Part shown: positions 1,362 through 39,889 of the stretch, piece after piece
How the letters are laid out: the number at the start of each line of letters is the position of its first letter
How positions within the stretch are numbered: position 1 is the stretch's first letter
From: Chiloscyllium plagiosum
Taxonomy: Eukaryota
Assembly (NCBI RefSeq): GCF_004010195.1
Contig: NC_057718.1
Coordinates: 58,859,284-58,899,172 of the forward strand
DNA: 39,889 nucleotides
Reading direction: 5' to 3'
Position numbers and translations under genes: made by a program
Notes under the pieces: model-generated
What the model was told of the DNA's origin: nothing
What the model saw: only the letters and a program-made list of their open reading frames with translations
Database searches by the model: none

Positions 1362-1969
1362 CCCCTGCTATTGGCCTGAAGAATATGGTTAATGTTTGTT
1401 CTCTTTTCTATTTTTCCCTATGTTTTCCCTTCCTTTCTTTTATTTCTTTCTTTCTTCCTAATAATTTCCTTTTTGGAAAGGGGGAAAAGACTGGAATAAG
1501 TTGTTCCTTTTTTTTAATAACTGGATTTTCTGATGGGAAATTTTGCGGATGTTCTTTGGTGTCTCTCACTTTTTTTTGTTTGTTCTGCTTCTCTTTTAGT
1601 CACAAGTCGGGGTGACATGAAGCTAGGGATGGGTGGAGTGCTCATCCTGACTTGGTCTTTTGATTTAAGGATCATGTCCTTGTTTTTTTTTTCTGGCCTA
1701 AGGCTGGGGCACAGTCCGGGTTTGAAGGAGCTGTGAAGGACAGGATGGGTAGGGTGAGTGCCCCCTATGAGCAGGGGGAAGAGTCTTCCATTCAAGGTTG
1801 TATAGTTGGTTTTCTTTGTAGCTTTGTAATGGTAATAGTTGTTTATAGTTATGAAGAGTAATTTTTGTATATATAGTTCTTTGATTCTATGAGTCTTTAT
1901 TTACTTATGCTCGGTGCTTTGTAAGCAGGGTTCTCCCTCCGAGGGGTTCAAAGTTCTCTGAAAGGGGAT

Positions 1970-4900
1970 AAGGCTAAGTGTCTTATTAAATGGTGCACCT
2001 GGAACATTAAGGGAAGTCATTCGCCTATTAAAAGGAAAAAAGTGCTTTCTAGCCTTAAGAGAGAAAGAGTTGATATTGCTTTGTTGCAGGAAACCCATCT
2101 TGATGATGGGGAACACCTGAAATTACAACAGGAGGGTTATGACCAGGTATTCTTTTCATCCTTTACTACTAAAAGTAAGGGAGTGGCGGTACTTATCCAG
2201 AAAAATCTTCTGTTCACATTATTAGAGCAGATAAAAGATGAGCAGGGACGGTTTGTGATACTTAAAGCCCTGATACATGGGGAGGAGTATGGCAATTTAA
2301 ATGTCTACTGTTCTCCAGTGCATCCCCTCAAATTTTTGATTAGTGCTTTCTCTAAGTTGAGTGCTTTTGGAACATGGCACATTATTATGGGGGGGGAGAT
2401 TTTAATTGTCTTTTGGATCCGACAATGGACAGGATGCCTTGTGGGTCCCCAACTATTTCTTCACAGGCCAAGCAGGTGGTTTACTTATGCGAGGAGTTGG
2501 GGCTGGTGGATATTTGGAGATGTCTTCACCCTACAGGCAGGGACTCCACCTTTTTTCAAACCCACATAAATGTCACACGAGGATTGACCTCTTTCTGGCT
2601 CCCTCGGCCCTTCTGGATTCGATTATGAGTTGTAAAATTGGGAATATAGCTATCTCTGATCATGTGGCAGTATATTTGGAGGTTAAGACCAAGAGTGAAG
2701 GGCTAGGTTTGCGGCACTGACGTTTGGACCCTTTTCTCCTTAAGGATTCCAAATTTGTGGAATACTTTTTGAAGTAGTTTCAGGAATTCTTGACTATCAA
2801 CTCAGGCACGGCTAGTAGTCCGTCCATGCTATGGGAGACTGCTAAGGCCTTTGCTAGGGGATTAGCTATTTCCTATTTGACTAGCCGGAAACGACAGAAG
2901 GAGGAACAGCAGCGTCTAATTGAGACATGGTTGAAAGCCGCGGAGGCAGCACATTTTGCGGGGCCTTCGGTCACTAAGCTACAGCGGATCACAGCCCTTC
3001 GGGCTATGACAAAAAACGCAAAGAACTTGCTATTGCTAGACAGAGGCTGTTCGAATATGGGGACAGGCCAACGAAGTATTTAGCGTACCTGACTAGGAAA
3101 AAGTGTGCTCCCCAATCCATTACTGCAATCAGAGACAGCGCCGGGGTCCTTACATAAGATGCTAAAAAGATTCATGAGGCTTTTCGGAGCTTTTACTCTG
3201 AATTGTATCGGTCTGAAGGTTGCGAAGACAGAAGTAAGAACCTGGACCTCCCAGGAGTAACCTTGGAACAGGCCTCTCTCCTTAATGCCCCCTTAACAGT
3301 TCAGGAAATGTATGAGGCAGCATCGGCAACTTCAGAGTGGGAAAGCGCCTGGCCCTGATGGTCTCCCAGGTGAGTTTTATAAGGAGTTTATAGAGATTCT
3401 GTCAGGGTTCTGTTGGAGATGTACAATCACTCCTATATGCATGAACGCCTACCACCATCTTTGAGAGAAGCTAATATTTCCTTAATTTTTAAGAAGGGGA
3501 AGGTTCCTGAGGATTGTGCCTCATACAGGCCCATCTCTCTATTAAAATGCAGACTTCAAGATTCTGTCCAAGACCCTGGCACTGAGATTGGAAAGGGTGT
3601 TGCCCCATATTATTAAAGAGGACTAGACAGGTTTTATAAGGGGCCGTAGGTCCTTGAATAATATTAGAAGGTTGCTGAATATGGCCCAAGTTTGTCAGCA
3701 ACGATCGGTTCAGGGGTTGGTGATTTCCTTAGATGCAGAGAAAGCATTTGACCGGGTGGAATGGCCGTATCTTTTTTATGTCTTAGAACAGTTTGGTTTG
3801 GGTGGAATCTTTGGTAGGTGGGTGGAGGTTTTATATCGCCACCCTCTGGCCGCAGTCATCACCAAAGGAGTGGATTTTAGGATTGGTCGGGATAGTCAGC
3901 AAGGCTGCCCCCTCTCACCGTTGTTGTTTACGTTAGTGATAGAGCCGCTGGCAGAGGCTATTCATCAGAACGTCCATATAACTGCTCCGGAAGTGGGATT
4001 GAGGGCACACAAGACTACATTGTATGCAGATGACGTCCTTCTGTTTTTATTGAACCCAATGACCTCTGTACGCCATTTTATACAATGTATCAATTCAATT
4101 GGGGCTATTTCAGGATATAAGATTAACTTTGCAAAATCGGAGGCTATGCCTTTGGGGAACATTAAGGATGAGCCAGAAGTTGAAGGTGGCCCTAAGTTCC
4201 CTTTTAAGTGGTCACAGGCAGGGTTCCAATACCTAGGCATTTTTATTACCCCCACGTTTGATCTGTTATTTCGGACTAACTTTGCTCACTTGCTCGACAA
4301 TATTAGGCAAGATCTCCAGAGATGGGAGACTCCTCCAATTTCATGCTTGGGCCGAACATCTCTCATTAAGATGAATGTTCTTCCTCGTTTGCTTTATCCC
4401 ATGAGTACACTCCCTATAATGTTTCCCAGGTCAACGCTGCGGAAGCTTATGGGGTGGTTTGGTTCCTTTGTCTGGCATCATGGGCAGCCCCTCATCCAAC
4501 TTATTAAATTGCAGTTGCCTCAAGGAGGGGGAGGAGTTGATTTCCCAGATATCAGGAGGTATCAATTGAGTTCCCTGCTGTCCTTTGTCTGCGATTGGGT
4601 AGGTAACGATCCAGGCTCAATATGGCTGGATAGTGAGGCCTCCCAAGCAAAGTGCCCTCTTATTAACCGGTTGTTCATGGATAAGATGAGGACAGTAATG
4701 GACCACTGCCAGAACCCCATTGTCATTAGTACAGTCAGGGCTTGGAGGGCGATGCGTCAGAGTGAGGGTTGTTTATCCAAGACTTCGCCACTTACACCTA
4801 TAGTTGGTATGCCAGGGTTCCGACCAGGGATGATGGACTCAGGGTGGAGTTTCTAGTTTAGGAGGCTTGTTTGAGGGAGAGGTTATGATGTCTTTTGAGC

Positions 4901-5690
4901 AACTGAGCCACAAATACGGGTTGCCCAGCAGAGATCTTTTCTGTTTTTTTCAGGTTAGGGATTTCATCCAGAAGAAGACTACGCTTCTCACTAAGCCCTA
5001 TAAGCCCAATACAGAGAAGTTGTTGCTATGTTCCACAAGCACCCTTTCAGTTAGTGCCCTGTATTGCCAGCTAGGTGGCAGGGCCTGGCAGGATATTAGC
5101 TGGTTATGTGAGGTCTGGGAGCAAGATCTGGGAGTGGAGATCTCTTCTGAAACATGGGAGAACATATGGGAGAATACTCGAAAGATCTCAATCTGTAATA
5201 GGACATGCGCTACGCAGTTTAAAGGTCTGCACAGAGCTCATCTGGCACCAGACCGTCTGGCGAAGTTTAAAAAAGGGACATCTTCAATGTGCCCCAAATG
5301 TATATTAAGTGTAGGTACTCTTACCCATTGCTTCTGGACATGCCACAGGCTCCGTGTTTATTGGAGCACTGTGGCGGGAGAGATAGGGAGGGTATTGAGG
5401 ACTGAAGTCAAAGTAGACCCGATATCTCTCCTCTTATGGTTTACCAAATTTACCATCTTTAGACGGGCATAGGAAGAAACTATTTAATATTCTTGCACAC
5501 TGTGCACGGAAGAATATTCTGATGAATTGGGTATCTGAGAACCCGTTGGGCTTGCTGGGATGGCAGAAATTAATTATGGAACACATTCCCTTAGACTTTT
5601 TCACAAACATGGTGCACCACACAACAGACCATTTTTATAAGATATGGAAGCCCTACTGGAGTTATTTGGATATAGATTTGTCAGTTTAAT
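1970..5690 (+). pseudogene. L1 ORF2 (APE endonuclease, reverse transcriptase, CCHC knuckle), frameshifted
   Basis: Motifs WNIKG, LLQETHL, GGDFN, RIDLFL..ISDH, KAPGPDG, YRPISL, SLDAEKAFDRVEW, QGCPLSPLLF, LYADD and CPKC..HCFWTC. There are multiple stops and frameshifts, and the start codon appears mutated. Confidence 0.92.
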
Positions 5691-6063: not shown

Positions 6064-6220
6064 AAAGTGGTGCTGGAAAAGCAAGCTGGTCAGGCAGCAT
6101 CCGAGGAGCAGGAAAATTTACTTCATCAGAGGCTTGAAAAATATGTTGCTGGAAAAGCGCAGCAGGTCAGGCAGCATCCAAGGAGTAGGAGAATCGACAT
6201 TTCTGGCATAAGCCCTTCTT
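6064..6220 (-). mobile_element. PLE terminus (family A/A'), right part, two tandem partial copies
   Basis: gctggaaaagcgcagcaggtcaggcagcatcc..gaatcgacatttctggcataagcccttctt matches 23877-23947. Confidence 0.8.
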
Positions 6221-6239
6221 CTTGTCTGGCAGCTCACGA

Positions 6240-6610: not shown

Positions 6611-8831
6611 AAGAACATAGGGACAAAAGAACTCGGAGCAGGAGTACGCCATCTGGCCCTCCCAGCCTGCTCCGTCATTCAATTAGATCATGGCTGATCT
6701 TTCCATGGACTCAGCTCCACTGACCCACCCTCTCACCATAACCCTCAATTCATTTACTGTTCAAAAAATTATCTATTTTAGCTTTAAGAACGTTTACTGA
6801 GGAAGCCTCAATCACTTCACTGGGCAGATAATTCCATAGATTCACAACCCTCTGGGTGGAGAAGTTCCTTCTCAATTCAGTCCTAAATCTGCTCCCCCTC
6901 ATTTTGATGCTATGCCATCTTGTCCTAGTTTCACCCACCAATGGAAACATCATCTCTACTTTCCTGCTCTATTCCTTCATAATTTTATATGTGTCTATTA
7001 GATCCCCAACTCATTTTTCTAAATTCCAATGAATATAATCCTAGTTCACCTAGCCTGTCCTCATAACCCAACCCCCTCAACTCCGGAAGCAATCTAGTGA
7101 CCCTCGTCTGCACCCCTTCCAGTGCCAGTACATCCTTTCTCAAGTAAGGAGACCAAAGCTGCACACAATACTCCAGGTGTGATCTCAACAGCCCCCTGTA
7201 CAGCTACAACATAAACTCCCTGCTTTTAAACCCAATTCCTTTAACAAAGAAGGACAAAATTCCATTTGCTTTCTTAATTATCTGTTGCACCTGCAGACCA
7301 AGCTTCTGTGATTCATGCACAAAGACACCCAGGTCCCTCAGCACAGCAGCATGCTGCAATTTCTTACCATTCAAGTAATAGTCCTTTTCACTGTTATTCC
7401 TACCAAAATGGATGACTTCACCTTTATTAACATAGTACTCCGTCTGCCAGACCTTTGCCCACTCACTTAAACTATCTATGTCCTTTTGCAAAGCTTCACA
7501 GTTCTCTGCAAACTTTGCCGTACCATTTATCTCAGCGTCATCCACAGACTTTGACACACTACACGTGGCCCCCAACTCCAAATTATCAATGTAAATTGTG
7601 AATAATTGTGGTCCCAACACTGATCCCTGAGGCACACCACTAGTCACTGATTGGCAACCACAATAGCATTCATGTTTCCCACTCTTTGCTTTTGCTTCCA
7701 GTTGGTTATTCAATCCTCGATACATGCTAATTCATTGCCCATAATGCCTTGCACCTTTATCTTATGGAGCAGTCTTTTGTGCTGCACCTTGTCAAATGGC
7801 TTTTGTTAAACTAGATACACCATATCTACTGGGTCCCAATTGTCCACCGTGTTCATAATGTCTTCATAGAATTCCAAAAGATTAGTGAAGCATGACCTCC
7901 CTTCACGAACCCATGCTGCATCTGCCAAATGGGACAATTCCTATCTAGATGCCTTGCTATTTCGTCCTTGATAATAGACTCAAGCATTTTTGCCACTACA
8001 GGAGTTAAGCTAACTGGTCTATATTTCTCCATCTTTTGTCTATCCCCCTTTTTAAACAGTGGCGTCACATTCACTGTCTTCCAATCTGCTGCAATTGCCC
8101 CAGAGTCCAGTGAGTTTTGAAAAATTATCACAAGTGCATTTGCTATTTCTCTCACCATCTCTTTTAGCACCCTGGGGTGCATTCCATCAGAGCCAGGAGA
8201 CATGTCTACCCTCGGCTCCATTAGCTTTTCCAACACTACCTCTTTCATGATAGCGATTGTTTCCTGGGCCTCACCTACCCTTGTCTCTTTGTCAATCACT
8301 GGCATGTTATTCATTTCCTCCACCAAGACCAATAAAAAGTACCTATTCAGTGTCTTGGCCATTTCCTCATATCCCATTTCTAACTCCCTCGTCTCATCCT
8401 GTGAAGGACCAATGTTTACTTTAGCCACTGTTTTATGTTTTATATATTTATAGAAACCTTTGCTCTCTGTCTTTATATTCTGAGCTAGTTTATTTCTCAT
8501 ACACTATATTACTTTTCTTTATAGCTCTTTTTGTGGCTTGCTGTTGACCTTTAAAGCTGTCCCAGTCTTCTAGTTTCCAACTGATTTTGGCAACTTTTTA
8601 TGCCTTCTCTTTCAATTTGATAGCCTCCCTTATTTCCTTAGACATCCATGGCAAATAACCCCTTTCCCTACGGTCCTTCCTTTTCATTGGCATATACTTT
8701 TGCTGAGCACTTTGAAAAATTGCTTTGAAAATCCTCCACTGTTCATCAACTGTCTCACCATAAAGTCTTTGCTTCCAGTCTACTTTAGCCAACTCCTCCC
8801 TCAGCCTATTGTTGTGCCCCTAGTTTAAGCT
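6611..8831 (-). mobile_element. CR1 LINE, 5'-truncated, degenerate
   Basis: Motifs SPGSDGMHPRVLKE, YRPVSLT, QHGFVKG, SGVPQGSVLGP and HLEYCVQLWSP; the 3' tail is near 6611. Confidence 0.9.
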
Positions 8832-12830: not shown

Positions 12831-13393
12831 TTTGTGTGTAATCCATCTTAGACATGCCAATGGCATGCTGCAAAAGTAGGAAGGGTTTCCTGGACAGTGA
12901 TCTAATTGAGAGGAAGTTGGAGTTATCATCATTATCCAAGGATCCAGAGTACAGCATGCAAATGAAAGTGCATATTGCTATAGCAACATGCCACTATTTT
13001 AATCACCAGTTTAATGGGGAAAATTGATTCGTTGCTAGGTGAAGATTGTAAGAAGATGAGTTAGTACCAGAAGAAGCTCATCAAGGTTTAAACTTTTAAA
13101 TCTTTGCTCATGAGATGAGCTTGCTCTTTTGGAGAGCACAGGAATAGGTTGGTCTCCTTTAACCTGAGGTTCTGCTTCATTTCTCAGCTGAAACAACATT
13201 TTGGAAACTAGTTTCTCAGACATCATAAAGTCATCTGAATAGATTGGAAAGCTTGACACCAACTCAGTATTCTCAGGCCCAATCGCTTTTCCATCTGCTT
13301 ATTATTGATGTGGAGGTGCCAGTGTTGGGCCCGGGTGGGCAAAGTTAAAAATCACACAACACCAGGTTATAGTCCAACAGGTTTATTTGAAAG

Positions 13394-13428
13394 CACTAGC
13401 TTTCAGAATGCTGCTCCTTCGTCAGGTA
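13394..13428 (-). ncRNA. Minimal type I hammerhead ribozyme motif (family B), weakened stem II
   Basis: Reverse strand reads tac CTGACGA a ggagc agc attct GAAA gcta gtg. Confidence 0.5.
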
Positions 13429-13805
13429 ACTAGTGGGGCAAGATCAGAAGACACAGAATTTATAGCAAAAGATTATAGTTTCATGCAATTAAAATGCTCT
13501 TTTACAATGGGTTGCAGGTTTAGGTTCATTAATATGTAAATCCCAGAACTATTTTCAAGTCACATTCTTGAGATAACTTAAGGTTTTATAAAAAAAGATG
13601 ACATCTCAGCTCAGACAATGCATTAAAGGTGTGAGGCTAGAGCCTGTTTGAATCCCAATCTTGAGTTACACTAGTTCTATTTCCAAAGTAGGAATTCATA
13701 AAGTGTTTTATATACATTGATTACCGTAGGTTGTGTGCTTTTTGAGCAAAAATAGAATGCATCTGCAAATACAATTCTGCAAATGCAAATTCACCCCATA
13801 GACTT

Positions 13806-14112
13806 ATATATGTGTGTATGTGTGTATATGTGAGGGAGAGAAAGAGAGTGTGAGTGCGTGCATGTGAGTGTGAGTGCACATGTGAGAGGGGGCATTTGTG
13901 TGTGTGCTTAGTAGAATGTGTGCATTAGTGATGGAGTATAAGCCTGTGAGAGGGTGTGTGCATAGGGGGTGTATGTGTGTGTGCCTGAGAAACCGCATGT
14001 ATGCCAGATGGTCTGCATGACTGTGTGAGTATGTAAGTGTGTGTGTATATGTGCTATGTAAGGGTGTGTGTATGTGTGTGCTTTTGTGTGTGTGCATGTG
14101 TGAGAGAAAGAG
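13806..14112 (+). repeat. Degenerate (TG)n/(GA)n microsatellite
   Basis: Directly visible; it lies between the inverted arms of the family B element. Confidence 0.9.
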
Positions 14113-14411
14113 AGTACTTTGGGAATAGAACCAGTCTGAGTCAAGATTACAATACAGACAGACTCTAACCTCACACCTTTAATACATTGTCTGAGCTGAG
14201 ATGTAATTTTTTAAATAAAACCTTAAATTAACTCGAGAATATGACTGAAGAGAAGTTCTATGATTTATATATTAATGAACTGAAATCTGCAACCCATTCT
14301 AATAGATGAAAGACTTAACAATAATCTAAGTTTGTTCAATGTATTATTTCAATTGCATGACACTGTGATATTTTGCTTTAAATTTGTGTCTTATGATTCT
14401 GCCCCACTAGT

Positions 14412-14446
14412 TACCTGATGAAGGAGCAGCGCTCTGAAAGCTAGTG
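14412..14446 (+). ncRNA. Minimal type I hammerhead ribozyme motif (family B)
   Basis: Reads tac CTGATGA a GGAGC agc GCTCT GAA AGCT A gtg: intact core, palindromic AGCU stem III and a predicted CUA cleavage triplet. Confidence 0.7.
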
Positions 14447-14530
14447 CTTCCAAATAAACCTGATGGACTATTACCTGGTGTCATGTGATTTTTAACTCTG
14501 CTTATTATTGACAGACAACAGAAATATATA

Positions 14531-16480
14531 AAACAAAGAACAAACAAAGAAAATTTATAGCCCAGGAACAGGCCCTTCGGCCCTCCAAGCCTGAGCCATT
14601 CCAAGTCCACTGTCTAAACCTATCACTCAATTCCTAAGCATTTGTATCCCCACCTACTCATGCATCTGCCCAGACGCATCTTAAATGAATCTACTGTGCC
14701 TGCCTCCACTACCTCTGCTGGCAATGCAGTCCAGGCGCCTACCACCCTCTGTGTAAAGTACTTGCCATTTGTATTGCCCCTTAAACTTTTCACCTCTCAC
14801 CTTGAAAGCGTGACCTCTCATCATTGAATCCTTCACCCTGGGAGAAAGCTTATCTCTGTCTACCCTTTCTATACCCTTCATGATTTTGTAGACCTCAATC
14901 AGGTTCCCCCTCAATTTCCTTTTTTCTAATAAAAACAAACCTAACCTATTCAACCTCTCTTCATAGCTAACACCTTCCATACCAGGCAACATCCTCATAA
15001 ACCTTCCCTGTACCCTCTCCAAAGCATCCACATCCTTTTGGTAATGTGGGGACCAGAACTGTAGACAGTATTCTAAATGCGGCCAAACCAATGTCGCGTA
15101 TAATTTTAACATGACCTGCCAGCTCTTATACTCAATATCCCATCTGATGAAGGCAAGCATATCATATGCCTTCTTGACCACTCTATCTACCTGTGCAGCA
15201 ACCTTCAGTGTACAATGGACCTGCACTCCCAGATCTCTCTACTCATCAACTTTTCCCAAGACCCTGATGTTTACTGTATAATTCGCTCTAGAATTAGACT
15301 TCCCAAAATGCATCACCTCACATTTGCCTGAATTGAACTCCATCTGCCACTTTTCCACCCAACTCTCCAGTCTATCTATATTCTCCTGTATTCTTTGACA
15401 TTCCCTTATGCTTTCTGCTACTCCACCAACCTTTGTGTGATCTGCAAACTTGCTGATCATACCAACAGTGCCCTCTTCCAGATCATTTATGTATATTACA
15501 AACAACAGTGGCCCCAGCACTGATCCCTGTGGAACACCACTGGTCACCTTTCTCCATTTTGAGAAACTCCCTTCAACTACTACTCTCTGTCTACTATTAC
15601 TCAACCAGTTCTTTATCCATCCAGCTAGAAGACCCTGCACACCATGTGACTTCACTTTCTCTATTAATTTACCATGGGGAACCTTATCAAACGCCTTACT
15701 AAAGTCCATGTATATGACATCTACAGCCCTTTCTTCATCTATCAATTTGGTCACTTCCTCAAAGAACTCTATAAAGTTGGTAAGGCATGAACTCCCCCGC
15801 ACAAAACCATGTTGCTCATCACTGATAAGCCCATTCTTTTCCAAATATAAATAGATTTTATCCCTCAGCACCTTCTCCAGCAACTTTCCCGCCACTGACA
15901 TCAGGCTCACTGGTCTGTAGTTTCCTGTACAAGAAGGGTAGTAGGGATATTCCGGGTAACTACCCTTTTTGTACAGGAGAACATGAGCAACCCTCCCGTC
16001 CTCCGGCATCTGACTGTGTTTAAGGATGCTGCAAAGATATCTGTCAGGGCCCCAGTTATTTCCTCTCTCACCTCCCTCAGCAACCTGGGGTAGATCCCAT
16101 GCAGGCCTCGGGATTTGTCCATGTTAATAACCTCTAGCTTATCCAACACATCTTCCCCACTTATGTCAACGTGATTCAGAGTAATCAAACTTCTATCTCT
16201 AATCTCAAAATTCATCATGTCCCCCTCCTTAGTGAACACTGATGCAAAGTGAATCATTCAGAATCTCACCCATTCTCTCAGGTTCGACACACAACCTTCC
16301 TTCATTATCCTTTAGTGGACCAATCCTTTTTCTAATTACCCGCTTGCTTCTTATATAAGAATAAAAGGCTTTGAGAATCTCCTTAATTCTGCTTGCTAAA
16401 GCTATGTCATGACCCATTTTAGCCTGCTTGATTCCTTGTTTAAGACTTGTCCTACTCTTCGATATTCCTCCAAGGTCCAT
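14531..16480 (-). mobile_element. CR1 LINE, 5'-truncated
   Basis: Motifs YRPVSL, QHGFVRG, MDFSKAFDKVPH, SGVPQGSVLGPLLF, SKFADH and HLEYCLQFWSP; aaacaaag tail. Confidence 0.92.
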
Positions 16481-19309: not shown

Positions 19310-20006
19310 TTAGGATCAGGAGTAGGCCACTCAGCCCTTCAAACCTATTCTGCTATTCAGTGAGATCATGGTTGTGTTCAACTTAAATACCATTTTCTTT
19401 CACTAACCTCTTATATTTTGATATTTTTAACATGTAAAAAAATCTAATTTCAATCTTGAACATGCTCAACGATGGAACCTTCACAACACTCTGGGGTAGA
19501 GAGCTTCAATGATTTCTCCTCATCTCAGTCCTAAGTGGTTAGCCCCTAATACTGAGACTATGTATCCTGCTTCTAGAACTCCTCCCCCCAGGGGAAACAA
19601 TCTTCCTCCATCTACCCTTTCAATTCATGTAAGAATATTGTATGTTTGAATGAAATCATCTCTCATTCTCCTAAACTACAGAGAATATAAGCGCCCTTTA
19701 TTTAATCTTTTCTCACAAGTCAACCTTTTATTCCAGGAAAGAGTTTGGCAAATCTTTCTTGCACTCCTTCTATGGAAGCATACTTTTTTTTAAAGGCAAG
19801 AACATCAAGGCGCACACACTACTCCAGGTATAGTCTAAACATGGTTCTATATAATTGTAGCAAGACAGCTTTAGAGTTGAAAATGTGTTGCTGGAAAAGC
19901 GCAGCAGGTCAGGCAGCATCCAGGGAACAGGAGAATCGATGTTTCGGGCATAAGACCCAGCAAGACAGCTTTACACTTGTATTCAAAACCTCTTGTAATA
20001 AAGGCC
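19310..20006 (-). mobile_element. Old CR1 3' fragment containing an 85-bp PLE insert
   Basis: Collinear with 6630-7250 (aggagtaggccactcagccc..). Confidence 0.7.
19874..19958 (-). mobile_element. 85-bp single-arm PLE terminus (family A) with 15-bp TSD
   Basis: TSD agcaagacagcttta at 19859-19873 and 19959-19973. Confidence 0.85.
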
Positions 20007-21275: not shown

Positions 21276-21360
21276 ATCTCACCTCATTTTAATTCATGGC
21301 AAGAATTGGGTATTGGTTGGAGCAGGCAGAGAAATCCTGCTACATGGCACCCTGACTAAG

Positions 21361-21558
21361 GTTAAAAATCACACAACACCAGATTATAGTCCAGCAGGTT
21401 TAATTGGAAGCATTAGCCTTTGGAGCACCGCTCCTTCATCTGGTGAGAGCGGTGCTCCGAAAGCTAGTGCTTCCAATTAAACCTGTTGGACTATAACCTG
21501 GTGTTGTGTGATTTTTAACTTAGTACACCCCAGTCCAACACCGGCATCTCCAAATCAT
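21361..21558. mobile_element. Fold-back PLE-derived element (family B), ~200 bp
   Basis: Arms 21361-21434 and 21447-21520 are inverted, with the tail 21521-21558 on the right arm only. Flanking direct repeat tg(a/g)ctaaggtta at 21353-21364 and 21558-21569. Confidence 0.88.
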
Positions 21559-23827
21559 GGCTAAGGTTAGGATTTTGCATTTAACCATGAGACATAACAC
21601 AAAACGAACTCATTTTTATTCCAATGTTTCATGAATATTTAGAGGTGGGCTTCCCTACTGATTGTCTGCAGAGTCAGGCAGTCCACTCATGTGGTGTCAC
21701 TAATTTGAATATGTTTTCCAACGTTATTTGAAAAGAGTTGTATCCATTTATTAAACATGGTCAAAAGGTAAGTAGATTTCTGATGTGGAAATTGTCATGG
21801 CAGGTCCACAGTTTGAGGCTCCCCAATTTGTTTCGATCTGGACAAGATATCCTTAATGATTGCACACATGAGTGAAGATCAATGAATTAATTCCCTTTTT
21901 TAATTTAACCCCTCTCTTGGTTATGATAAGATTCATCTTTTAAAAAAATTCCTGTCTCATGGATTTCCATTTCCAAACCAATTGTTTGAAGCAGCCATAA
22001 TTAACATAGTTTTCTTCACTTAAAGAAAGGATGAGCTTATTAGCTACAAAATCTGTGAAAAAATAATAAAACAAAATGTCACAGGTATAGCATAGTCTAG
22101 AAACATGAATTGAGTAAAAAGATAACAATTAAAAAGATACAAAACTAAATCCCTGGTTTCTATGAAGAGCAAATAATGGAAAATTATGTCCATTAGGTTG
22201 GAGTAAAGCTGACATTGACAGTAAAGCAGTCAGTTCAAGATTCTTGACTCTGCAGTTGGCTGACAGGCTTTTGTCCTTTTCCCTTCTCTATGTTGACTTA
22301 ACTGGCTTTCTGGGTGTGCAGCACTCAGATTGAGATAGATACTTTATTTCAACTACAGTGCAGGGGTATCTAATGGCTATCCTCAGGCTATGAACGAACT
22401 GTGAACATCCTTTAATGCTCATCAGAGCATTAATAATCAAAGATCAGTAATTGCAGTTTTTTTAAATCTTTTTTTTGTGAATTTCTAGAAGCATAAAACA
22501 CAAACATGTCTACAGTTAGAGATATAATTCACAGTAGATACTTTACACTGAGAGGTGCATTAACCCCTTTTAACTGTCTCTCTTTTGAAAATTCCTTGAC
22601 ACTCTACAGGTGTGATATCCAATTGATTCACACAGGACTATCATGGACAGTCACTAAATGTAATTCCACAGACATCTTTTGACTGTTTCAAAAGCACATG
22701 TTGTAATTAGAACTTCACTTTATTGATAAGTAACCTGAGTTCAGAATCCATTGTTATGACAAGTGGTTTAGGGAAGGAATTTCAGAGCTTAAGACCCACG
22801 TACTGAAAGGTGATGATGTGGTGATGAAAATTGAGGATGTGTAAGAGCTGATATTTGGATGAGCTCAGATAGAGTCATGCAGTCATGGAATCATAGAGAT
22901 GTACGGCATGGAAACAGATCCTTCGGTCCAGATTGTCCATGTTGACCAAATATCCCAAACCAATCTAGACCCACTTGCCAGTGCCTGGCCCACATCCCTC
23001 CAAACCCTTCCTATTCATATACCCATCCAGATGCCTTTTAAATATAACATTGCATCAGCCTCCACCACTTCCTCTGGCAGCCCATTCCATACATACACCA
23101 CCTTCTGCGTGAAAAAGCTGCCCCTTAGGTCTCTTTTATATCTTTCCCTTCACTATAAACCTAGTTCTGGACTCCCACTCCCAGGGAAAAGACCTGATCT
23201 ATTTACCCTATCCATGCCCCTCATGATTTTATAAACCTCTATAAGGCCACTCCTCAGCCTCCGATGCTCCAGGGAAAACAGCCGTAGCCTGTTCAACCTC
23301 TCCTTATAGTTCAAATTCTTCAATCCTGGCAATATCCTTGTAAATCTTTTCTAAACCCTTTCAAGTTTCACAACGGCTTTCCAGTAAGAAGGGGACCAGA
23401 ATGGCATGTAATATTCCAAAAGTGGCCTAACCAATGTCCCGTACAGCCGCAACATGACCTCCCAAGTCTTGCACTCAATATTCTGACCAATAAAGGTCTC
23501 TTTGTTCAGCAACACTCACTAGGACCTTACCATTAAGCGTATAGATCCTGCTAAGATTTGCTTTCCCAATATGCAGCACGTCACATTTATCTAAATTAAA
23601 CGCCATCTGCCACTCCTAAGCCCATTGGCCCATCTGATCCAATATCCCGTTGTAATCTGAGGTAACCTTTTTCGCTGACCACTACATCTCCAATTTTGGT
23701 GTTATCTGCAAACTTACTCACTATACCTCTTATGCTCACATCCAAACCATTTATATAAACAGTGAAAATTAGTGGACTCTGCACCGATCCTTGTGGCACC
23801 CATTGGTCACAGGTCTCCAGTCTGAAA

Positions 23828-24039
23828 GGAGAAAGTGAGGTCTGCAGATGCTGGAGATCAGAGCTGGAAATGTGTTGCTGGAAAAGCGCAGCAGGTCAGG
23901 CAGCATCCAGGGAACAGGAGAATCGACGTTTTGGGCATAAGCCCTTCCTGAAGAAGGGCTTATGCCCGAAACGTCGATTCTCCTGTTCCCTGGATGCTGC
24001 CTGACCTGCTGCGCTTTTCCAGCAACACATTTCCAGCTC
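23828..24039. mobile_element. Fold-back PLE-derived element (family A), 212 bp
   Basis: Arms 23861-23947 and 23953-24039 form an almost perfect inverted repeat, with a 33-nt tail (23828-23860) on the left only. TSD ctccagtctgaaa at 23815-23827 and 24037-24049. Confidence 0.92.
23946..23977 (+). ncRNA. Minimal type I hammerhead ribozyme motif (family A)
   Basis: Reads tc CTGAAGA a GGGC ttat GCCC GAA ACGT C ga; predicted GUC cleavage triplet. Confidence 0.7.
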
Positions 24040-24525
24040 CAGTCTGAAAAACAACCCCCCACCACCACCCTCTGTTTTCTATCTTCGAGCCAGTTCTGTA
24101 TCCAAATGGCTTGTTCTCCTTGTATTCCATGAGGTCTAACTGTGCTCACTAATCTCCCAAGGGAAACCTTGTTGAATGCCATACTGAAGTCCATATAGAT
24201 CACATATATTGCTCTGCCCTAATCAATTCTCTTTGTTATTCCTTCAAAAAACTCAATCAAGTTTGTGAGGTGTGATTTTCCATACACAAAGTCATATTGA
24301 CTATCAGTCCTTGCCTTTCCAAATACATTTACATCCTGACCCTTAGGATTCCCTCCAACAACTTGCCCAATACCGAAGTCAGGCTCACTGGTCATAGTTG
24401 CCTGACTTGTCCTTACCACCTTTCTTAAACAGTGACACTACGTTAGCCAACTTGCAATCTTCTGGCACCTCACCTGTGACTATCGATGGTACAAATATCT
24501 CAGCAAGAGGCCTAGCAATCACTTT

Positions 24526-26136
24526 CCCAACGCCTTATCTTCACCATGGTCCCCAACGCCTTATCTTCACCATGGATCCCCAATGCCTTATCTTCACCAT
24601 GGACTCATCTCTGCATACCTCAACATGGTCCTGTCCCCCTTAGTCCAAGAACTCCCCACCTACGTTCGGAACACCACCCACGCCCTCCACCTCCTCCATG
24701 ATTTTCACTTCCCCGGTCCCCAACGCCTTATCTTCACCATGGACATCCAGTCCCTGTACACCTCCACCCCCCATCACGAAGGACTCAAAGCCCTCCGCTT
24801 CTTCCTTTCCTGCCTTACCAACCAATTCCCTTCCACTGACACCTTCCTTCGACTGACTGAACTGGTCCTCACCCTGAACAACATCTCTTTCCAATCCTCC
24901 CACTTCCTCAAACCAAAGGAGTAGCCATGGGCACCCGCATGGGCCCCAGCTATGCCTGCCTCTTCGTAGGATATGTGGAACAGTCCATCTTCCGCAGCTA
25001 CACTGGCACTCCCCCCACCTTTTCCTCCGCTACATCGATGACTGTATCGGCGCTGCCTCATGCTCCCACGAGGAGATTGAACAGTTCATCCACTTTACCA
25101 ACACCTCCACCCCGACCTCAAATTCACCTGGACCGTCTCAGACTCCTCCCTCCCCTTCCTAGACCTTTCCATTTCTATCTCGGGCGACCGAATCAACACG
25201 GACATTTACTATAAACCGACCGACTCCCACAGCTACCTAGACTACACCTCCTCCCACCCTGCCCCCAGTAAAACCGGCATCCCATATTCCCAATTCCTTT
25301 GTCTCCGCCGCATCTGCTCCAGGAGGACCAGTTCCAATACCGAACAACCAAGATGGCCTCCTTCTTCAAAGACCGCAATTCCCCCCCAGACGTGGTCGAC
25401 GATGCTCTCCACCGCATCTCCTCCAATTTCCGCTCCTCCGCCCTTGAGCCCCGCCCCTCCAATCGCCACCAGGACCGAACCCCACTGGTCCTCACCTACC
25501 ACCNNNNNNNNNNNNNNNNNNNNNNNNNNNNNNNNNNNNNNNNNNNNNNNNNNNNNNNNNNNNNNNNNNNNNNNNNNNNNNNNNNNNNNNNNNNNNNNNN
25601 NNNNNNNNNNNNNNNNNNNNNNNNNNNNNNNNNNNNNNNNNNNNNNNNNNNNNNNNNNNNNNNNNNNNNNNNNNNNNNNNNNNNNNNNNNNNNNNNNNNN
25701 NNNNNNNNNNNNNNNNNNNNNNNNNNNNNNNNNNNNNNNNNNNNNNNNNNNNNNNNNNNNNNNNNNNNNNNNNNNNNNNNNNNNNNNNNNNNNNNNNNNN
25801 NNNNNNNNNNNNNNNNNNNNNNNNNNNNNNNNNNNNNNNNNNNNNNNNNNNNNNNNNNNNNNNNNNNNNNNNNNNNNNNNNNNNNNNNNNNNNNNNNNNN
25901 NNNNNNNNNNNTCACCTTGACCTCCTTCCACCCATCACATTTCCAATGCCCCTCCCCCAAGTCCCTCCTCCCTACCTTTTATCTTAGCCTGCTGGACACA
26001 CTTTCCTCATTCCTGAAGAAGGACACATGCCCGAAACGCGATTCTCCTGTTTCTTGGATGCTGCCTGACCTGCTGTGCTTTTCCAGCAACCCATTTTCAG
26101 CTCTGATCTCCAGCATCCGCATTCCTCACTTTCGCC
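24526..26136 (+). mobile_element. 5'-truncated Penelope-like retroelement (RT fragment, family A 3' end)
   Basis: PLE-type RT motifs IFTMDIQSLYTS, GVAMGTRMGPSYACLFVG, FLRYIDD and YYKPTD..YL; it ends in the family A terminus. A 16-bp TSD gcctagcaatcacttt lies at 24510-24525 and 26134-26149. Confidence 0.9.
25504..25911. other. Assembly gap (N run)
   Basis: Run of n characters. Confidence 1.
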
Positions 26137-26568
26137 TAGCAATCACTTTTCTTGCTTCCCACAGAGTTCTAGGGTACACCTGATCAGGTCCTGGGGATTT
26201 ATCCACTTTGTTGCATTTCAAGACATCCAGCACTTCCTCCTCTGTAATATAGACATTTTTCAAGATGTCACCATCTATTTCCTTACACTCTATATCTTCC
26301 ATGTCCGTCTCCACAGTAAACACTGATGCAAAATGCTCATTTAGTATCTCCGCCATCTCCTGCGGTTCCACACAAAGACCGCCTTGCTGATCTTTGAGGG
26401 GCCCTATTCTCTCCCCAGTTACCCTTTTGTCCTTAATGTATTTGTAAAAACCCTTTGGATTCTCCTTAACTCTATTTGGCAAAGCTTTATCATGTCCCCT
26501 TTTTGCCCTCCTGATTTCCCTCTTAAGTATACTCCTACTGCCTTTATACTCTTCTAAGGATTCATTTG

Positions 26569-26704
26569 GGTTAGTGGTGCTGGAAGAGCACAGCAGTTCA
26601 GGCAGCATCAGGAGCTTCTCTTTGGATGCTGCCTGAACTGCTGTGCTCTTCCAGCACCACTAATCCAGAATCTGGTTACCAGCATCTGCAGTCATTGTTT
26701 TTAC
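26569..26704. mobile_element. Fold-back PLE-derived element (family A'), 136 bp, lacking the hammerhead core
   Basis: Inverted arms ttagtggtgctggaagagcacagcagttcaggcagcatc / gatgctgcctgaactgctgtgctcttccagcaccactaa, with a tail on the right only. TSD ctaaggattcatttg at 26554-26568 and 26705-26719. Confidence 0.9.
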
Positions 26705-28096: not shown

Positions 28097-28505
28097 ATTT
28101 TATTATTATTTGTTCATGGCATGTGGCTTGGCCAGCATTTATTGCTCATCACTAATTGCCCAGAGGACACTTAAGAGTTAACCGCATTGCTATGGGTCTG
28201 GAGTCATATGCAGGCCAGACCAGGTAAGGATGGCAGTTTCCTTCCCTAGAGGACATTAGTGAACCAGATGGCTTTTTCTGACGATCAACAATGGAGACTC
28301 TTAATTCCAGTTTTTTTTAAATTGAATTCAAATTCCTCCATCTGCCATGGTGGGATTCAAATCCAAGTCCCCAGAACATTGCCTGGGTCTCTGGAACAAC
28401 TCGTCGGATGCTGCCTGAATTGCTGTGCTCTTCCAGCATCTGCAGTCATTGTTTTTACCTCTGGATTAACAGTCCAACAATAATATCACTAAACCATTGC
28501 CTCCT
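28097..28505 (-). mobile_element. tRNA-derived DeuSINE (SacSINE1-like) containing a small PLE insert
   Basis: The reverse strand has a tRNA-like head, a Deu-like core (ggttcactaatgtcc..ggaaggaaa..ccttacctggtctggcct..gactccagaccc) and a tail shared with LINE family 2. A PLE A' fragment at 28396-28458 is flanked by ctctgga repeats. Confidence 0.75.
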
Positions 28506-29924: not shown

Positions 29925-30445
29925 TCTGGCAGCATCTGTGGAGAGAAAGTAGAGTTAACATTTAGGATGCAGTGAAACTTCTTTATAACTGATGGTAGCG
30001 GGGAAAAGGTTGTCTTTTTATGCAGAAGATAGGGTAGAGGGAGGGGACAGGAATAAACAATAGGTGGAAATAGAGCCCAAAAAGAGTGAAGAACAGGAGA
30101 AAAGACAGGGCTCTTAGCCCACTCTGACCCATCTCCTGCACTTCAGCCCTCTTTTCCCTCCCACCATTGTCCTCATCTACCATCCCACCAGCATCCACAT
30201 TCAGAGGATCATTAGCCACAATTTCCACCACATCCATCAGGATGCGACCACCAGATACATACTCTGTCAGCATTCTTCATGGACTGTTCTGTCCTGTGTC
30301 ACCATGGTCCACTCCTCCTTCACTGCCAACACATCCCCAGAGCACCTTCCCCTGCAACCGCAGAAAGTGTAACCTGCCCATTTACTTCCTCCCTTTTCAG
30401 TATGCAAGGGCCCAAACACACTTGCCAGGTGAAGTAGCACTGTAG
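29925..30445. mobile_element. Old PLE (family C): reverse-strand terminus followed by a plus-strand ORF fragment
   Basis: ctggcagcatctgtggagagaa.. matches the reverse complement of 33545-33566. The plus strand reads TFPCNRRKCN, a Cys-rich RT-EN linker. Confidence 0.6.
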
Positions 30446-30697: not shown

Positions 30698-30830
30698 GGA
30701 GAAAGTGAGGTCTGCAGATGCTGGAGATCAAAGTTGAAACTTTATTGCTGGAACAGCACAGCAGGTCAGGCAGCATCCAGGGAACAGGAGATTCGACGTT
30801 TCGGGCACAGGCCCTTCTTCAGGAATGAGA
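30698..30830 (-). mobile_element. PLE terminus (family A) with tail
   Basis: Matches 23828-23947 and extends through the whole hammerhead. Confidence 0.88.
30791..30826 (-). ncRNA. Best-preserved minimal type I hammerhead ribozyme motif
   Basis: Reverse strand reads ATTC CTGAAGA a GGGC ctgt GCCC GAA ACGT C GAAT: stem I ATTC/GAAT, stem II GGGC/GCCC and palindromic ACGU stem III. Confidence 0.78.
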
Positions 30831-31190
30831 AGAACAGAAACAGAATCCCCAAGTGGAAAATGAAGTGTTGTTCTTTGAACTTGCGTTAAGGAACACTGCA
30901 ACAGATCTGGGACAGAAATGTTGGTGTAGGAACACAGTGGTGTGTTGAAGTGGAGGCAGTGGGAAACTCTGGGTCATGTTTTACAGACAGAGTGTAGGTG
31001 TTCAGCAAAGCGGTCATCAAATCTGTGTTTCATCTCCCCCGATATACAGGAGACCACATTCTGAGCAGTGAATGAAATAAATGAGTTGAGAGAAGTGCAG
31101 GTAAGCTGCTGCTTCACCTGGAAGGTGTGCCTGAGGCCTTGGATACTGAGGTTGGAGGAAGTAAATCGGCAAGTAAGTCACCTTGTGCAA
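30831..31190 (-). pseudogene. PLE GIY-YIG endonuclease relic
   Basis: Across frameshifts it reads QVKQQLTCTS..CSECGLLYIG.EMKHRFDDRFAEHLHSV..HFNTP..KFKEQHFIFHLG. Confidence 0.75.
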
Positions 31191-31249: not shown

Positions 31250-31295
31250 CAGTTCTGATGAAGAATCGCCAGACTCGAAATATTATCTTGCTTTC
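31250..31295 (+). mobile_element. PLE family C terminus with degenerate hammerhead; continues at 32985-33072 after a CR1 insertion
   Basis: Reads CTGATGA a gaatc gcca gactc GAAA tatt; downstream half tctcacagatgct..atttctgttttgtttc..tccagcat. Confidence 0.55.
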
Positions 31296-32985
31296 AAAGA
31301 ACACAGAACATTACAGCACAGTCCAGGCTCTCTGACCCTCAATGTTGTGCTGACCTGTGAAACCAGCCTGAAGCTGAACTAACCTGCATTGTTGCATTAT
31401 CATCCATATGTTTATCCAATGGCCATTTAAAAAGACATTAAAGTCGGTGAGTCTACTACAGTTGCAGGCAGGGAGTTTCACGCCATTACTACTCTCTGAG
31501 TAAAGAAACTACCCCTCTGACATCTGTCCTATATCTATCACCGCTCAATTTAAAGCTATGTCCTCTCATGCTAGCCATCACTATCCGAGGAAAACGTCTC
31601 TCTCTGCTAACACTATCTAATCCTCTGATCATCTTTCACATCTCTATTAAGTCACCTCTCAACCTCTTCCTTCTAACGAAAACAGCCTCAGGTCACTCAG
31701 TCTTTCCTCAGAAGACCTTCCTTCCATACCAGACAATATCCTCATAAATCTCCTCTGCATCTTTTCCAAAACTTACACATCCTTCCTATAATGTGGTAAC
31801 CAGAACTGTACGCAATACTCCAAGTGCGGCCACACCATAGTTTCCTACAGCTGCAACATAACCCCATGGTTCATATGCCTTCTTAACAATCCTATTAACC
31901 TGGGTGGCAACTTTCAGGGATCTATGTACATGGACACGGAGATCTTTCTGCTCATCCACACTGCAAGAACCTTACCATTACCCCAGTACTCTGTATTACT
32001 GTTACTTCTTCCAAAATGAATCACCTCACACTTTTCTGCATTAAACTCCATTTGCCACCTTTCAGCCCAACTCTGCAGCTTATCTATGTCCCTCTGTAAG
32101 CAGCAATATCCTTCAGCACTGTCCACAGCTCGACCGACCTTAGAGTCATTTGTAAATTTACTAACCCATCCTTCTACGCCATCATCCAGGTCATGTATAA
32201 AAATGACAAACAGCAGTGGCCCCTAAACAGATCCTTATGGTATACCACTAATAACTGAACACCAGGATGAACATTTGCCACCACCACTCTCTGTCTTCTT
32301 TCAGCTAACCAATTTCTGATTCATACCACTAAATCACCCTCAATCCCATACCTCCATATTTACTGCAACAGCTTACCATGGGGAACCTTATCAAACGCTT
32401 TACTGAAATCCATGTACACCACATCAACCACTATACCCTCATTCATCTTCTCAACCATCTCAATAAGCTTTGCGAGGCACGACCTGCCCTTCACAAAACT
32501 GTGTTGACTATCCCTAATCAAATTGTTCCTTTCTAGTTAATAATAAATCCTATATCTTATAATTCTTTCCAGCACTTTACCCACAACTGAAGTAAGGCTC
32601 ACTGCTCTATAATTACCAAAGTTGTCTCTACTCCCCTTCTTGAACAAGGGGACAACATTTGCTATCTTCCAGTCTTCTGGCACAATTTCTGTCGACAATG
32701 ACGACATAAAGATCAAAGCCAAATGTTCTGCAATCTCCTTCCTGGCTTCCCAGAGAATCTGAGGATAAATCACATCCGGCCCAGGGGACTTATCTATTTT
32801 CACACTTTCCAGAATTGCTAACACCTCCTCCTTACGAACCTCAGTCCCATCTCATCTAATAGCCTGTACCTCAGTGTTCTCCTCAACAACATTGTCTCTT
32901 TCCAGTGTAAATACTAATGAAAAATATTCATTTAGCACCTCTCCTATCTCCTCGGACTCCAAGCACAAATTCCCACTCCTGTCCT
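31296..32985 (-). mobile_element. CR1 LINE, 5'-truncated
   Basis: Motifs KSPGPDVIYP, NVVPLFKKG..NYRAVSLTSV and WAERWQMEFNAEKCEVIHFG; aaagaacacagaaca tail. Confidence 0.9.
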
Positions 32986-33567: not shown

Positions 33568-33917
33568 CTAATGCTATGTTCTAGGTTCAGTTACAGAAAG
33601 CAAGCAAGCAGGCTCTTGCTCAAAGTTTTCTCCGCCTCTCGTTCCTTTACCTCATAAAGGATAAAGCTGGATGGGATGCTGAGACATTTTCTTATTTGGT
33701 GAGGGATCCACTGGGAATGATAACTAAGCAGAGATACTTGCCATGTGTTCAGTGTGTCGGTCTCTGCTGTCTGCTTTGCCTGGAGCTGCTGCTTCCATTA
33801 TGCGCCTGGGACCCATGATTTTCATCGCAACTCACTCTGTGATTATCTTTTTGAATTGAGACTCAACAGCATTTGGCAAGATTTAACAATGTTACTCAGG
33901 GCTGGCAACACAGAAAC

Positions 33918-34082
33918 AAAGTTAAAAATCAGACAACACTAGGTTATAGTTCAACAGATTTATCAGCTACCTGATGAAGGAGCAGTGCTCCGGAAGCTAG
34001 TGCTTCCAAATAAACCTGTTGGACTATAACCTAGTGTTGTCAGATTTTTAACTTTGCCCACCTTAGTCCAACACCGGCACCT
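33918..34082. mobile_element. Fold-back PLE-derived element (family B)
   Basis: Arms 33918-33963 and 34011-34056 are inverted. The hammerhead at 33968-34002 has GAAA changed to GGAA, and the tail is on the right arm. Confidence 0.85.
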
Positions 34083-34782
34083 AGCAGGTTGTCTGTGCGG
34101 CGATTCCGGAGGCGGTTGTTTGGGCCGCGATCATGAAGGTTGCGCGGTCGGTGGGGGCGGAAGTGACGTCATCGTCGGCGGCGTCTGCGGCTATTGCCGC
34201 GGGCGCTGTAGCGGCCGCGTGTGTAATGGCGCCGGACTGGTTTCGGAGGCCGATGGAAGTTTCTGGAACGGTTGAGGTATCCGGAGTTTGGGGGTAAGTG
34301 CATGAAAGTTTTTGGTACTTACTGCCTTTAATTTCCGATATGGCTAGAAAGAACTGTTTGTTCAGTCTATGGATTCTTCTGTGGATGAAGAACAGTAGAG
34401 GTCCTTTACATGTCTGTGAGAGAGTTGTCCTGAGCTGGGGTATGTCGAGTTGCAGGGAATGTAGGTACCGGCGCATGGCTGCAAGCGTGGAGTGGAGGAT
34501 CTGGAGGGAGGTCCGTTGCTGGAGGCTGCGGATTTGTTGCAGGTACTGGTAGTCCTGGTTGGGTCCAAATTGTGTTGGTCGGAAGGTGATCTGGAGTCCA
34601 TGGGGGATCAGTCGGTTCCGTAGGCAGGTGCTGAGAAAGGAGATATGGCTGTGGTAACGAGTCTGCTTCAGAATGTGGCTGAAGAGCTTCTGTGCAGAGG
34701 AGATGACCTGGGGTGTGCAGTGAGAGAGGGACTCACTGAAATCTTTGTAGAGAGAGGCAGAGAGCTTCTTCAAGGAAGGCAT
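34081..34782 (-). CDS. Uninterrupted 233-aa ORF, probable N-terminal part of a PLE polyprotein (3'-truncated)
   Basis: ATG start; HISFLSTCLRNRLIPHGL resembles the PLE N-terminal 'HxxFLxxCxxxxxIPxGL' motif. It is CpG-rich and ends at the junction with the family B tail. Confidence 0.6.
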   Translation of the reverse strand: MPSLKKLSASLYKDFSESLSHCTPQVISSAQKLFSHILKQTRYHSHISFLSTCLRNRLIPHGLQITFRPTQFGPNQDYQYLQQIRSLQQRTSLQILHSTLAAMRRYLHSLQLDIPQLRTTLSQTCKGPLLFFIHRRIHRLNKQFFLAISEIKGSKYQKLSCTYPQTPDTSTVPETSIGLRNQSGAITHAAATAPAAIAADAADDDVTSAPTDRATFMIAAQTTASGIAAQTTC

Positions 34783-39592: not shown

Positions 39593-39889
39593 GGTAAAAA
39601 AAGGGCTGCAGATGCTGGAAACCAGATTCTGGATTAGAGTGGTGCTGGAAAAGCACAGCAGTTCAGGCAGCATCCGAGGAGCAGGAAAATCGATGTTTTG
39701 GGCAAAAGCCCTTCATCAGGAATACAGACAGAGTGCCTGAAGGATGGAGAGAATACAGGCACTCTGCCTGTATTCCTGATGAAGGGCTTTTGCCGGAAAT
39801 GTCGATTTTCCTGCTCCTCGGATGCTGCCTGAACTGCTGTGCTTTTCCAGCACCACTCTAATCCAGAATCTGGTTTCCAGCATCTGCAG
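39593..39889. mobile_element. Fold-back PLE-derived element (family A') with two decayed hammerheads; runs off the window end
   Basis: 39606-39738 is an inverted repeat of 39757-39889. Confidence 0.9.

Follow-up and report, generated by a model that had tools for sequence, protein, structure and literature searches.

The window, i.e. the whole stretch of 39,889 nucleotides analysed here (58859284-58899172 of the contig, in an assembly of 3.56 Gb), is repeat-rich vertebrate DNA whose repeats resemble those of cartilaginous fishes. Scattered through it are pieces of Penelope-like elements (PLEs) of three families, termed A, B and C, whose termini carry hammerhead ribozyme motifs (Table 1). A sequence-only reading had proposed nine such sites, and all nine are present to within a few bases: each has CTGANGA, one extra A and a stem-II-like hairpin. 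The extra base between A9 and stem II, seen at 9 of 9 sites, is a feature already published (PMC4209133). Numbered by C3 of the core, the sites are 23948+, 26013+, 30822-, 39719- and 39776+ (family A), 13425-, 14415+ and 33971+ (family B) and 31255+ (family C).

Table 1. PLE-derived features of the window and parts of the family A hammerhead at 30791..30826
Feature	Position	Strand	Remarks
Minimal hammerhead, family A, complete	30791..30826	-	36-nt monomer is predicted to fold stems I and II, -7.1 kcal/mol
Stem I of this motif	30826-30823 with 30794-30791	-	4 bp
Core of this motif	30822-30816	-	extra A at 30815
Stem II of this motif	30814-30803	-	4 bp; GAAA at 30802-30799
Stem III of this motif		-	palindrome ACGU, C17 next; predicted cut between 30795 and 30794
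Solo family A PLE stub with this motif	30698..30833	-	begins 7-11 bases before core, ends at +124
Family A fold-back insertion	23828..24039	.	+ arm core complete (C3 23948), 2-bp stem I
5'-truncated family A PLE	24540..26136	+	start approximate; terminus hammerhead damaged (C3 26013)
Family A fold-back, two damaged hammerheads	39594..39889	.	C3 39719-, 39776+
Family A ORF start	34084..34782	-	ATG at 34782
Family A stub starting within hammerhead (+8)	19873..19957	-	17-base target duplication
Similar core-less family A stubs	1-98, 6138-6221, 26567-26704, 28401-28438		
Family B inverted pair, TG-rich centre	13311..14500	.	hammerheads C3 13425-, 14415+, both structurally complete
Family B stub, short inverted arm	33916..34082	.	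hammerhead C3 33971+
Further family B fold-back	21358..21553	.	both cores damaged; missed by the sequence-only reading
Decayed family C hammerhead	31251..31290	+	C3 31255
Decayed PLE endonuclease remnant	30890..31165	-	43% to family C endonuclease of L063

A strict minimal-hammerhead descriptor (stem II of at least 3 bp, GAAA, a palindromic stem III, UH and stem I of at least 3 bp), a check proposed with the original reading, passes three window sites (30822-, 14415+ and 13425-) and none in any of 300 dinucleotide shuffles; a relaxed form gives six window matches against a shuffle mean of 0.07 and a maximum of 2. Could these be chance matches to a short consensus? CTGANGA alone does occur 45 times in the window, but the empty shuffles, reversed controls that gave 0 matches and the fixed position of the motif in PLE termini leave chance with practically no likelihood. 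The Rfam hammerhead models, also proposed as a check, found nothing: the scan of the window at E<=5 gave no hammerhead match and nine sub-threshold matches to miRNA/lncRNA models, most of them on fold-back arms.

Only the family C site had been regarded as decayed, but by sequence five of the nine are damaged, and core, stem II and palindrome are complete at only four, one of which (23948+) has a 2-bp stem I. In family A, the palindrome and UH are gone from 26013+ and its stem II contains a mismatch, 39719- reads AAAA in place of GAAA, and 39776+ shows ATGT as well as a G facing a G at the stem II base. The family B site 33971+ has a GGAA core change, and 31255+ of family C shows stem II mismatches and a stem I of 1 bp. 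The other two family B sites, 13425- and 14415+, have a 3-bp stem I, with G-U at the stem II base.

The stub at 30698..30833(-) is downstream 100% identical to the terminus of an ORF-bearing element elsewhere in the genome (L167); no target duplication was seen at it. In the fold-backs 23828..24039 and 21358..21553 the junction lies at the 5' edge of the hammerhead. The truncated family A element at 24540..26136 contains broken reverse transcriptase (RT) pieces and an assembly gap (25504-25911), and its 88% relative L181 has a Pfam RVT_1 match. Family B inverted pairs, with a spacing of about 0.9-1.3 kb, recur in the genome; the window pair at 13311-14500 turns round inside the TG/CA repeat of the 3' region, which suggests an inversion at the microsatellite. 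The endonuclease remnant at 30890..31165 is inverted relative to the family C hammerhead. A further decayed PLE fragment, of endonuclease and linker, lies at 30128-30442(+), with no terminus of its own seen nearby. The window stub 1-98 and locus L292 both follow a run of N and have their first base one position ahead of the predicted cut; these starts are probably assembly breaks and were not counted as ends. Other mobile elements are present as well. A broken LINE-1-like element (739-5472, +) has a coiled-coil ORF1 piece, an endonuclease (PF03372) and an RT (RVT_1), and four minus-strand LINE fragments, which we take to be CR1-like, lie about 8 kb apart and are 60-80% alike (7204-8503, 14681-16257, 22863-24393 and 31720-32851).

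PLE coding sequence is linked to all three hammerhead families. None of the five PLE fragments of the window that were searched matches a Pfam family, and their identity is drawn from longer relatives. In family A elements elsewhere in the genome, the ORF starts 163 bases behind C3 where the upstream terminus is kept, and a second hammerhead follows about 3.9 kb later; the order is ORF start, RT (RVT_1, E 1.5e-7), GIY-YIG (E 3.5e-5) and hammerhead. The middles read N, and no gap-free full PLE ORF was seen. The family A ORF in L163 and L155 has, behind a conserved N-terminal domain, a long stretch rich in Ala, Thr and Pro that is partly tandemly repeated. For family B, the adjacent loci L083-L084 give RT, CxxC linker, endonuclease, CA repeat and then hammerhead. 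In family C, 2 of 20 loci (L055 and L063) have endonuclease frames 230-330 bases ahead of the motif. The B and C endonucleases have no Pfam match of their own and match that of A at E 7e-16 (B) and 2e-39 (C). A CX2-5CxxC linker precedes the endonuclease, intact in the A and B translations and decayed in C; it is a feature of Neptune and Nematis elements (PMC8557442). By this linker and by the order of RT and GIY-YIG, families A, B and C are assigned to the EN+ PLEs of Neptune/Nematis type.

Are the three termini unrelated, as had been stated? Not so, because the endonucleases are 29-43% identical (A-C 43%, A-B 31%, B-C 29%) and one of two comparisons of the A and C tails beats all 500 shuffles (41 vs a maximum of 25), the other scoring 20 vs 29; the family B tail matches neither. 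A fourth PLE family was found in the genome sample and not in the window (L088:3127-3172 and L132:6310-6355). It has an extra U and an 18-base stem-loop II, and its endonuclease end is presumably Penelope/Poseidon-like; the extra U occurs in 5 of 29 descriptor matches of the genome sample.

The core, the extra base, the lack of a loop III and the position in PLE terminal repeats all agree with the type proposed at the outset: judged by their sequence features, the motifs are metazoan PLE minimal type I hammerheads with a palindromic stem III. Covariation-like support had been claimed as well, and part of it stands. In a descriptive pair table of seven natural copies from four families, the letters of stems I-III change while pairing mostly holds, with ACGT as stem III palindrome in A, C and D and AGCT in B. 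Pairing kept across families with different letters therefore suggests that the source elements kept the fold. Variation of loop II within family A is a different matter and is not covariation, because loops say nothing about pairing.

The claim of a very large dispersed population is borne out. Exact patterns of core, stem II and palindrome occur 96,662 times genome-wide (A 80,723; B 15,808; C 131, the last being the undamaged form of that family), with 0 matches for the reversed-pattern controls; when a 3-bp stem I is included, 12,517 A and 12,463 B copies remain, about 25,000. A general descriptor with stem I of at least 2 bp gave 43 matches in 770 kb (reversed control 0), all 43 with one extra base and no loop III; with stem I of at least 3 bp it gave 29 in 1.35 Mb, again with the extra base in 29 of 29, and in both searches zero extra bases was allowed. 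If the sampled stretches are typical, the genome total extrapolates to about 76,000-200,000. A pattern found 61,357 times falls to 15,561 when nine upstream bases are added, in agreement with frequent truncation, the second pattern missing some subfamilies.

RNA reads offer a partial view of cleavage. In a single-cell poly(A) run, of which about 2% was read, 2,140 reads fall on the family A terminus and 3,267 on the family B terminus, and sense-strand transcription of the motifs is seen; contig runs X1 and X15 attest presence only. On neither terminus do read starts or ends pile up in this run. In family B the sense-strand depth is unbroken across the cut site. The mapping of RNA ends after GUC/CUA that had been suggested thus comes out negative, as a weak test: a poly(A) library would probably lose short cut products, and the reads therefore prove uncut RNA and not the absence of cutting. 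At the family B terminus (L049:1537-1559, equal to window 14451-14473) about 1,400 reads have poly(A) from 55-58 bases behind C3, some 15 bases past an AATAAA/AATTAAA signal and upstream of the ends of the DNA copies. The family B repeat appears to supply a polyadenylation site in cells.

Where do the copies begin? The 5' ends were mapped, with C3 as 0, against natural long copies in an unselected sample of 1.40 Mb (140 stretches of 10 kb, the window and its two neighbours), and expected numbers follow from the background rate. Two references were dropped, L037 for an inserted tRNA-type SINE and L020 for an inverted arm, and the others were capped at -100; in family A, 32 shared-flank and 37 censored copies were left out of the end counts. 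In the interval -6..+5, which was picked after a first look at the data and in which fold-back arms, being non-independent, are counted twice, there are 80 family A ends vs 9.7 expected (n=248 arms), about 8-fold. The peak is broad, with its mode at -4 (20 ends), the first base of stem I. Non-inverted family A copies alone give 34 ends vs 4.5 expected. A target duplication confirms the end in 16 of the 76 non-inverted copies, and 10 of these 16 ends lie in the interval. Family B gives 20 ends vs 2.6 expected (n=65), its non-inverted excess being weak (5 vs 1.6, P 0.047), and family C gives 8 vs 0.9 (n=24). A splice acceptor at -4 of family A, an idea by analogy with Drosophila virilis (PMC4209133), was rejected: flanks are unshared and the last two bases are mixed (AG in 3 of 52).

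The predicted cut site shows no such excess. In family A, 2 of 204 ends are at +27/+28 vs 2.6 expected and 5 are at +24..+31 vs 10.1, figures that would accommodate a few percent of cut-site ends; in family B the count is 1 of 57, or 3 of 57 vs 1.0 expected in a wider interval (P 0.096), two of the three apparently being one duplicated locus. Copies that run into the ORF were treated as a separate set of 30, extending from +37 into the ORF, which are the best 30 of 40 scored from 3,274 candidates and include the query's own locus; 18 of them reach the front of the hammerhead. Only 1 of these 18 continues beyond -12, and 17 stop at the first bases of stem I; among ordinary copies 56 of 144 continue (Fisher P 0.004). 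The ORF-linked set is biased against copies that extend further upstream, because tandem junctions are often gapped (L162, L169, L170 and L292).

We consider it fairly probable that these are minimal hammerheads of Neptune-type PLEs, represented by about 100,000 mostly decaying stubs, and that the 5' ends lie at stem I because transcripts begin at that place and serve as templates without being cut. Transcription would be driven by a promoter within the terminal repeat and set in at about -4, where stem I has its first base. Such a start is likely, to judge from the position of the copy 5' ends; the A at -4 of family A sits in what we take to be an initiator-like pyrimidine context. Among the family A reads of the poly(A) run there is no place where many molecules begin. 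Penelope itself has an internal promoter in its pseudo-LTR (PMC2377424). A full-length RNA would then open with a hammerhead and carry another in its 3' repeat. Reverse transcription might start about 85-125 bases behind a hammerhead, and internal initiation has been shown for a related element (PMC11167929). When started behind the 5' copy, it would run off the RNA end after about 130 bases and leave a solo or fold-back stub. Against this, it has been argued that inverted junctions may come from self-priming on an antisense template (PMC3846280). Copying behind the 5' repeat or across the whole element would end at -4, and copying from the 3' repeat would pass on. A physical RNA end at about -4 would thus give a hard stop for ORF-linked copies and a partial stop for the rest.

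What would the ribozyme do in such a scheme? By analogy with published systems, it may be functional only in source elements, cutting slowly as a dimer via the 4-base palindrome, probably with help from the element's protein, and the cut RNA would seldom become a genomic copy. If the RNA starts at stem I, the 5' and 3' ribozymes could be partners without a tandem array. If stubs are run-off copies of uncut RNA, cleavage would therefore decap or retire the RNA and not make the template. The whole of this proposal, with RNA beginning at the first stem I base in three families, stubs as run-offs of uncut RNA and cleavage as a means to decap or retire it, is tentative, with the odds somewhat against it. 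The function of the PLE hammerhead has been called unclear (PMC8557442).

The main rival to an RNA start at -4 supposes a longer RNA, tandem or circular, with a hot spot at which reverse transcriptase is blocked or switches template, owing to the hammerhead fold, a bound protein or microhomology, and at which 5' ends therefore gather. In its favour, 33 of 52 family A ends at -6..-1 are fold-back junctions, and assembly gaps may hide tandem copies. An ATT overlaps the target duplication in several copies, and a related enzyme prefers cutting at ATT (PMC11167929); yet families B and C peak at the same place without ATT, and the ATT at +29..+31 of family A has the lowest rate of ends. A fold would be expected to halt the enzyme 3' of itself, although the rate of ends on that side is low, and ORF-linked copies should pass a block as often as ordinary ones, which they do not. 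We regard a block or switch as unlikely, although it deserves more weight than the other alternatives. Another proposal, the model of PMC4209133, has the hammerhead process tandem or two-ended PLE RNA to unit-length, possibly circular RNA as the main insertion template. The structure is kept across four PLE families in the genome, and a full-length RNA would carry two copies able to pair. Linear cut RNA, on the other hand, should leave ends at +28, where none are in excess, a circular template would not explain why copying stops hard at -4, and ribozyme-dead mutants insert normally in vitro (PMC11167929), all of which makes a cut main template very improbable.

Might the dispersed copies themselves be an active self-cleaving population, whose transcripts pair in trans via the palindrome and trim host transcripts? 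The exact copies with 3-bp stem I are numerous, the motifs are transcribed in sense, and the poly(A) library could hardly have kept short cut products. But in the unselected sample the structure is complete in just 42 of the 248 A copies and 10 of the 65 B copies, and a U-U mismatch takes the place of the third stem I pair in 137 of about 200 family A copies. Family A positions have decayed to much the same extent as the sequence around them, CpG sites most of all; G12 and the CpG of stem III (78-84% kept) behave in this respect as ordinary CpG sites do. In a simple energy model the pairing probability of stem I is 0.10-0.16 in the 129-nt stub, and the two-strand minimum-energy prediction for 36-mers pairs the stem II arms and not the palindrome. 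Reads run across the site with no pile-up, and the minimal hammerheads in the literature showed no activity as monomers and little as dimers (PMC4209133). Nor are the neighbours in the window tandem dimers, because copies lie on opposite strands, and a transcript through close opposite-strand copies would be a long hairpin rather than a tandem dimer. Selection on inserted copies was also considered and set aside: 56 of 1381 core cells are off-majority vs 278 of 4394 downstream, a comparison confounded by subfamily differences. An active dispersed population is thus improbable, about as much so as a cut main template, and the stubs are most likely inert. The description of the population as potentially self-cleaving fits the source elements, and the dispersed stubs much less.

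How do these elements compare with known systems? In Cervera and De la Peña (2014; PMC4209133) the nucleotide between 9 and 10.1, the palindrome, predicted dimers and massive dispersal are already described, with about 4,000 motifs in Latimeria and about 9,000 in Xenopus, and with no monomer activity and low dimer activity for minimal hammerheads. The shark motifs share with these the type I form without loop III, a palindromic 15.2-16.2, one base between 9 and 10.1, G10.1-C11.1 and a short stem I, as well as the location in PLE terminal repeats, mostly as single dispersed motifs, also as opposite-strand pairs, and in many families per genome. They differ in a stem II of 4-5 bp, vs 7-8 bp in Schistosoma, and in copy number, here about ten times the highest given there, with search methods that differ. 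The available portions of that paper do not treat 5' end positions of copies, and two of its three supplements contain no shark terms. In the literature, as far as its accessible parts go, no report of shark PLE hammerheads or of a truncation peak at stem I was found; the dimer study of Lünse et al. (cited in PMC6765202) may list shark examples.

The Poseidon element PAc of Anolis (Frangieh et al. 2024; PMC11167929) is similar in having a hammerhead at the junction of repeat and ORF, reverse transcription that sets in some 90 bases behind the cut, and RNA-seq data that show no ends there. PAc belongs to the Poseidon clade, with its start codon inside the hammerhead, whereas the elements here are Neptune-type with a start codon 163 bases behind C3; its activity has been measured, whereas those here are known from sequence and RNA reads. 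PAc is reported to be cleaved only with the element's protein and to insert in vitro without need of cleavage. Non-LTR retrozymes (PMC7229834; bioRxiv 10.64898/2026.07.22.740005), reported in one chondrichthyan, likewise have type I hammerheads and are animal repeats derived from or related to PLE termini, but they are head-to-tail tandem repeats and the copies here are solo or inverted. Membership of the retrozyme class was rejected: among 39 intact cores in the sample, a same-strand neighbour lies within 500 bases of 1 and within 5 kb of 2.

EN+ PLE insertions are described with 5' truncation, an adjacent inverted copy and a 30-40 bp tail (PMC8557442; PMC3846280). Fold-backs and solo termini, target duplications of 12-17 bases and the CX2-5CxxC linker are shared with the elements here; truncation is variable in those reports, whereas here it peaks at the 5' edge of the hammerhead. 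Motif, extra base, palindrome, the dimer idea and mass dispersal are thus already known (PMC4209133), as are fold-backs and tails (PMC8557442; PMC3846280). To these the present genome adds scale, about ten times the published maxima, and through it a fossil record of where copying stopped. A modest mechanistic addition is that the 5' ends lie at stem I: the record speaks against a cut RNA template and singles out one base at which the RNA probably starts.
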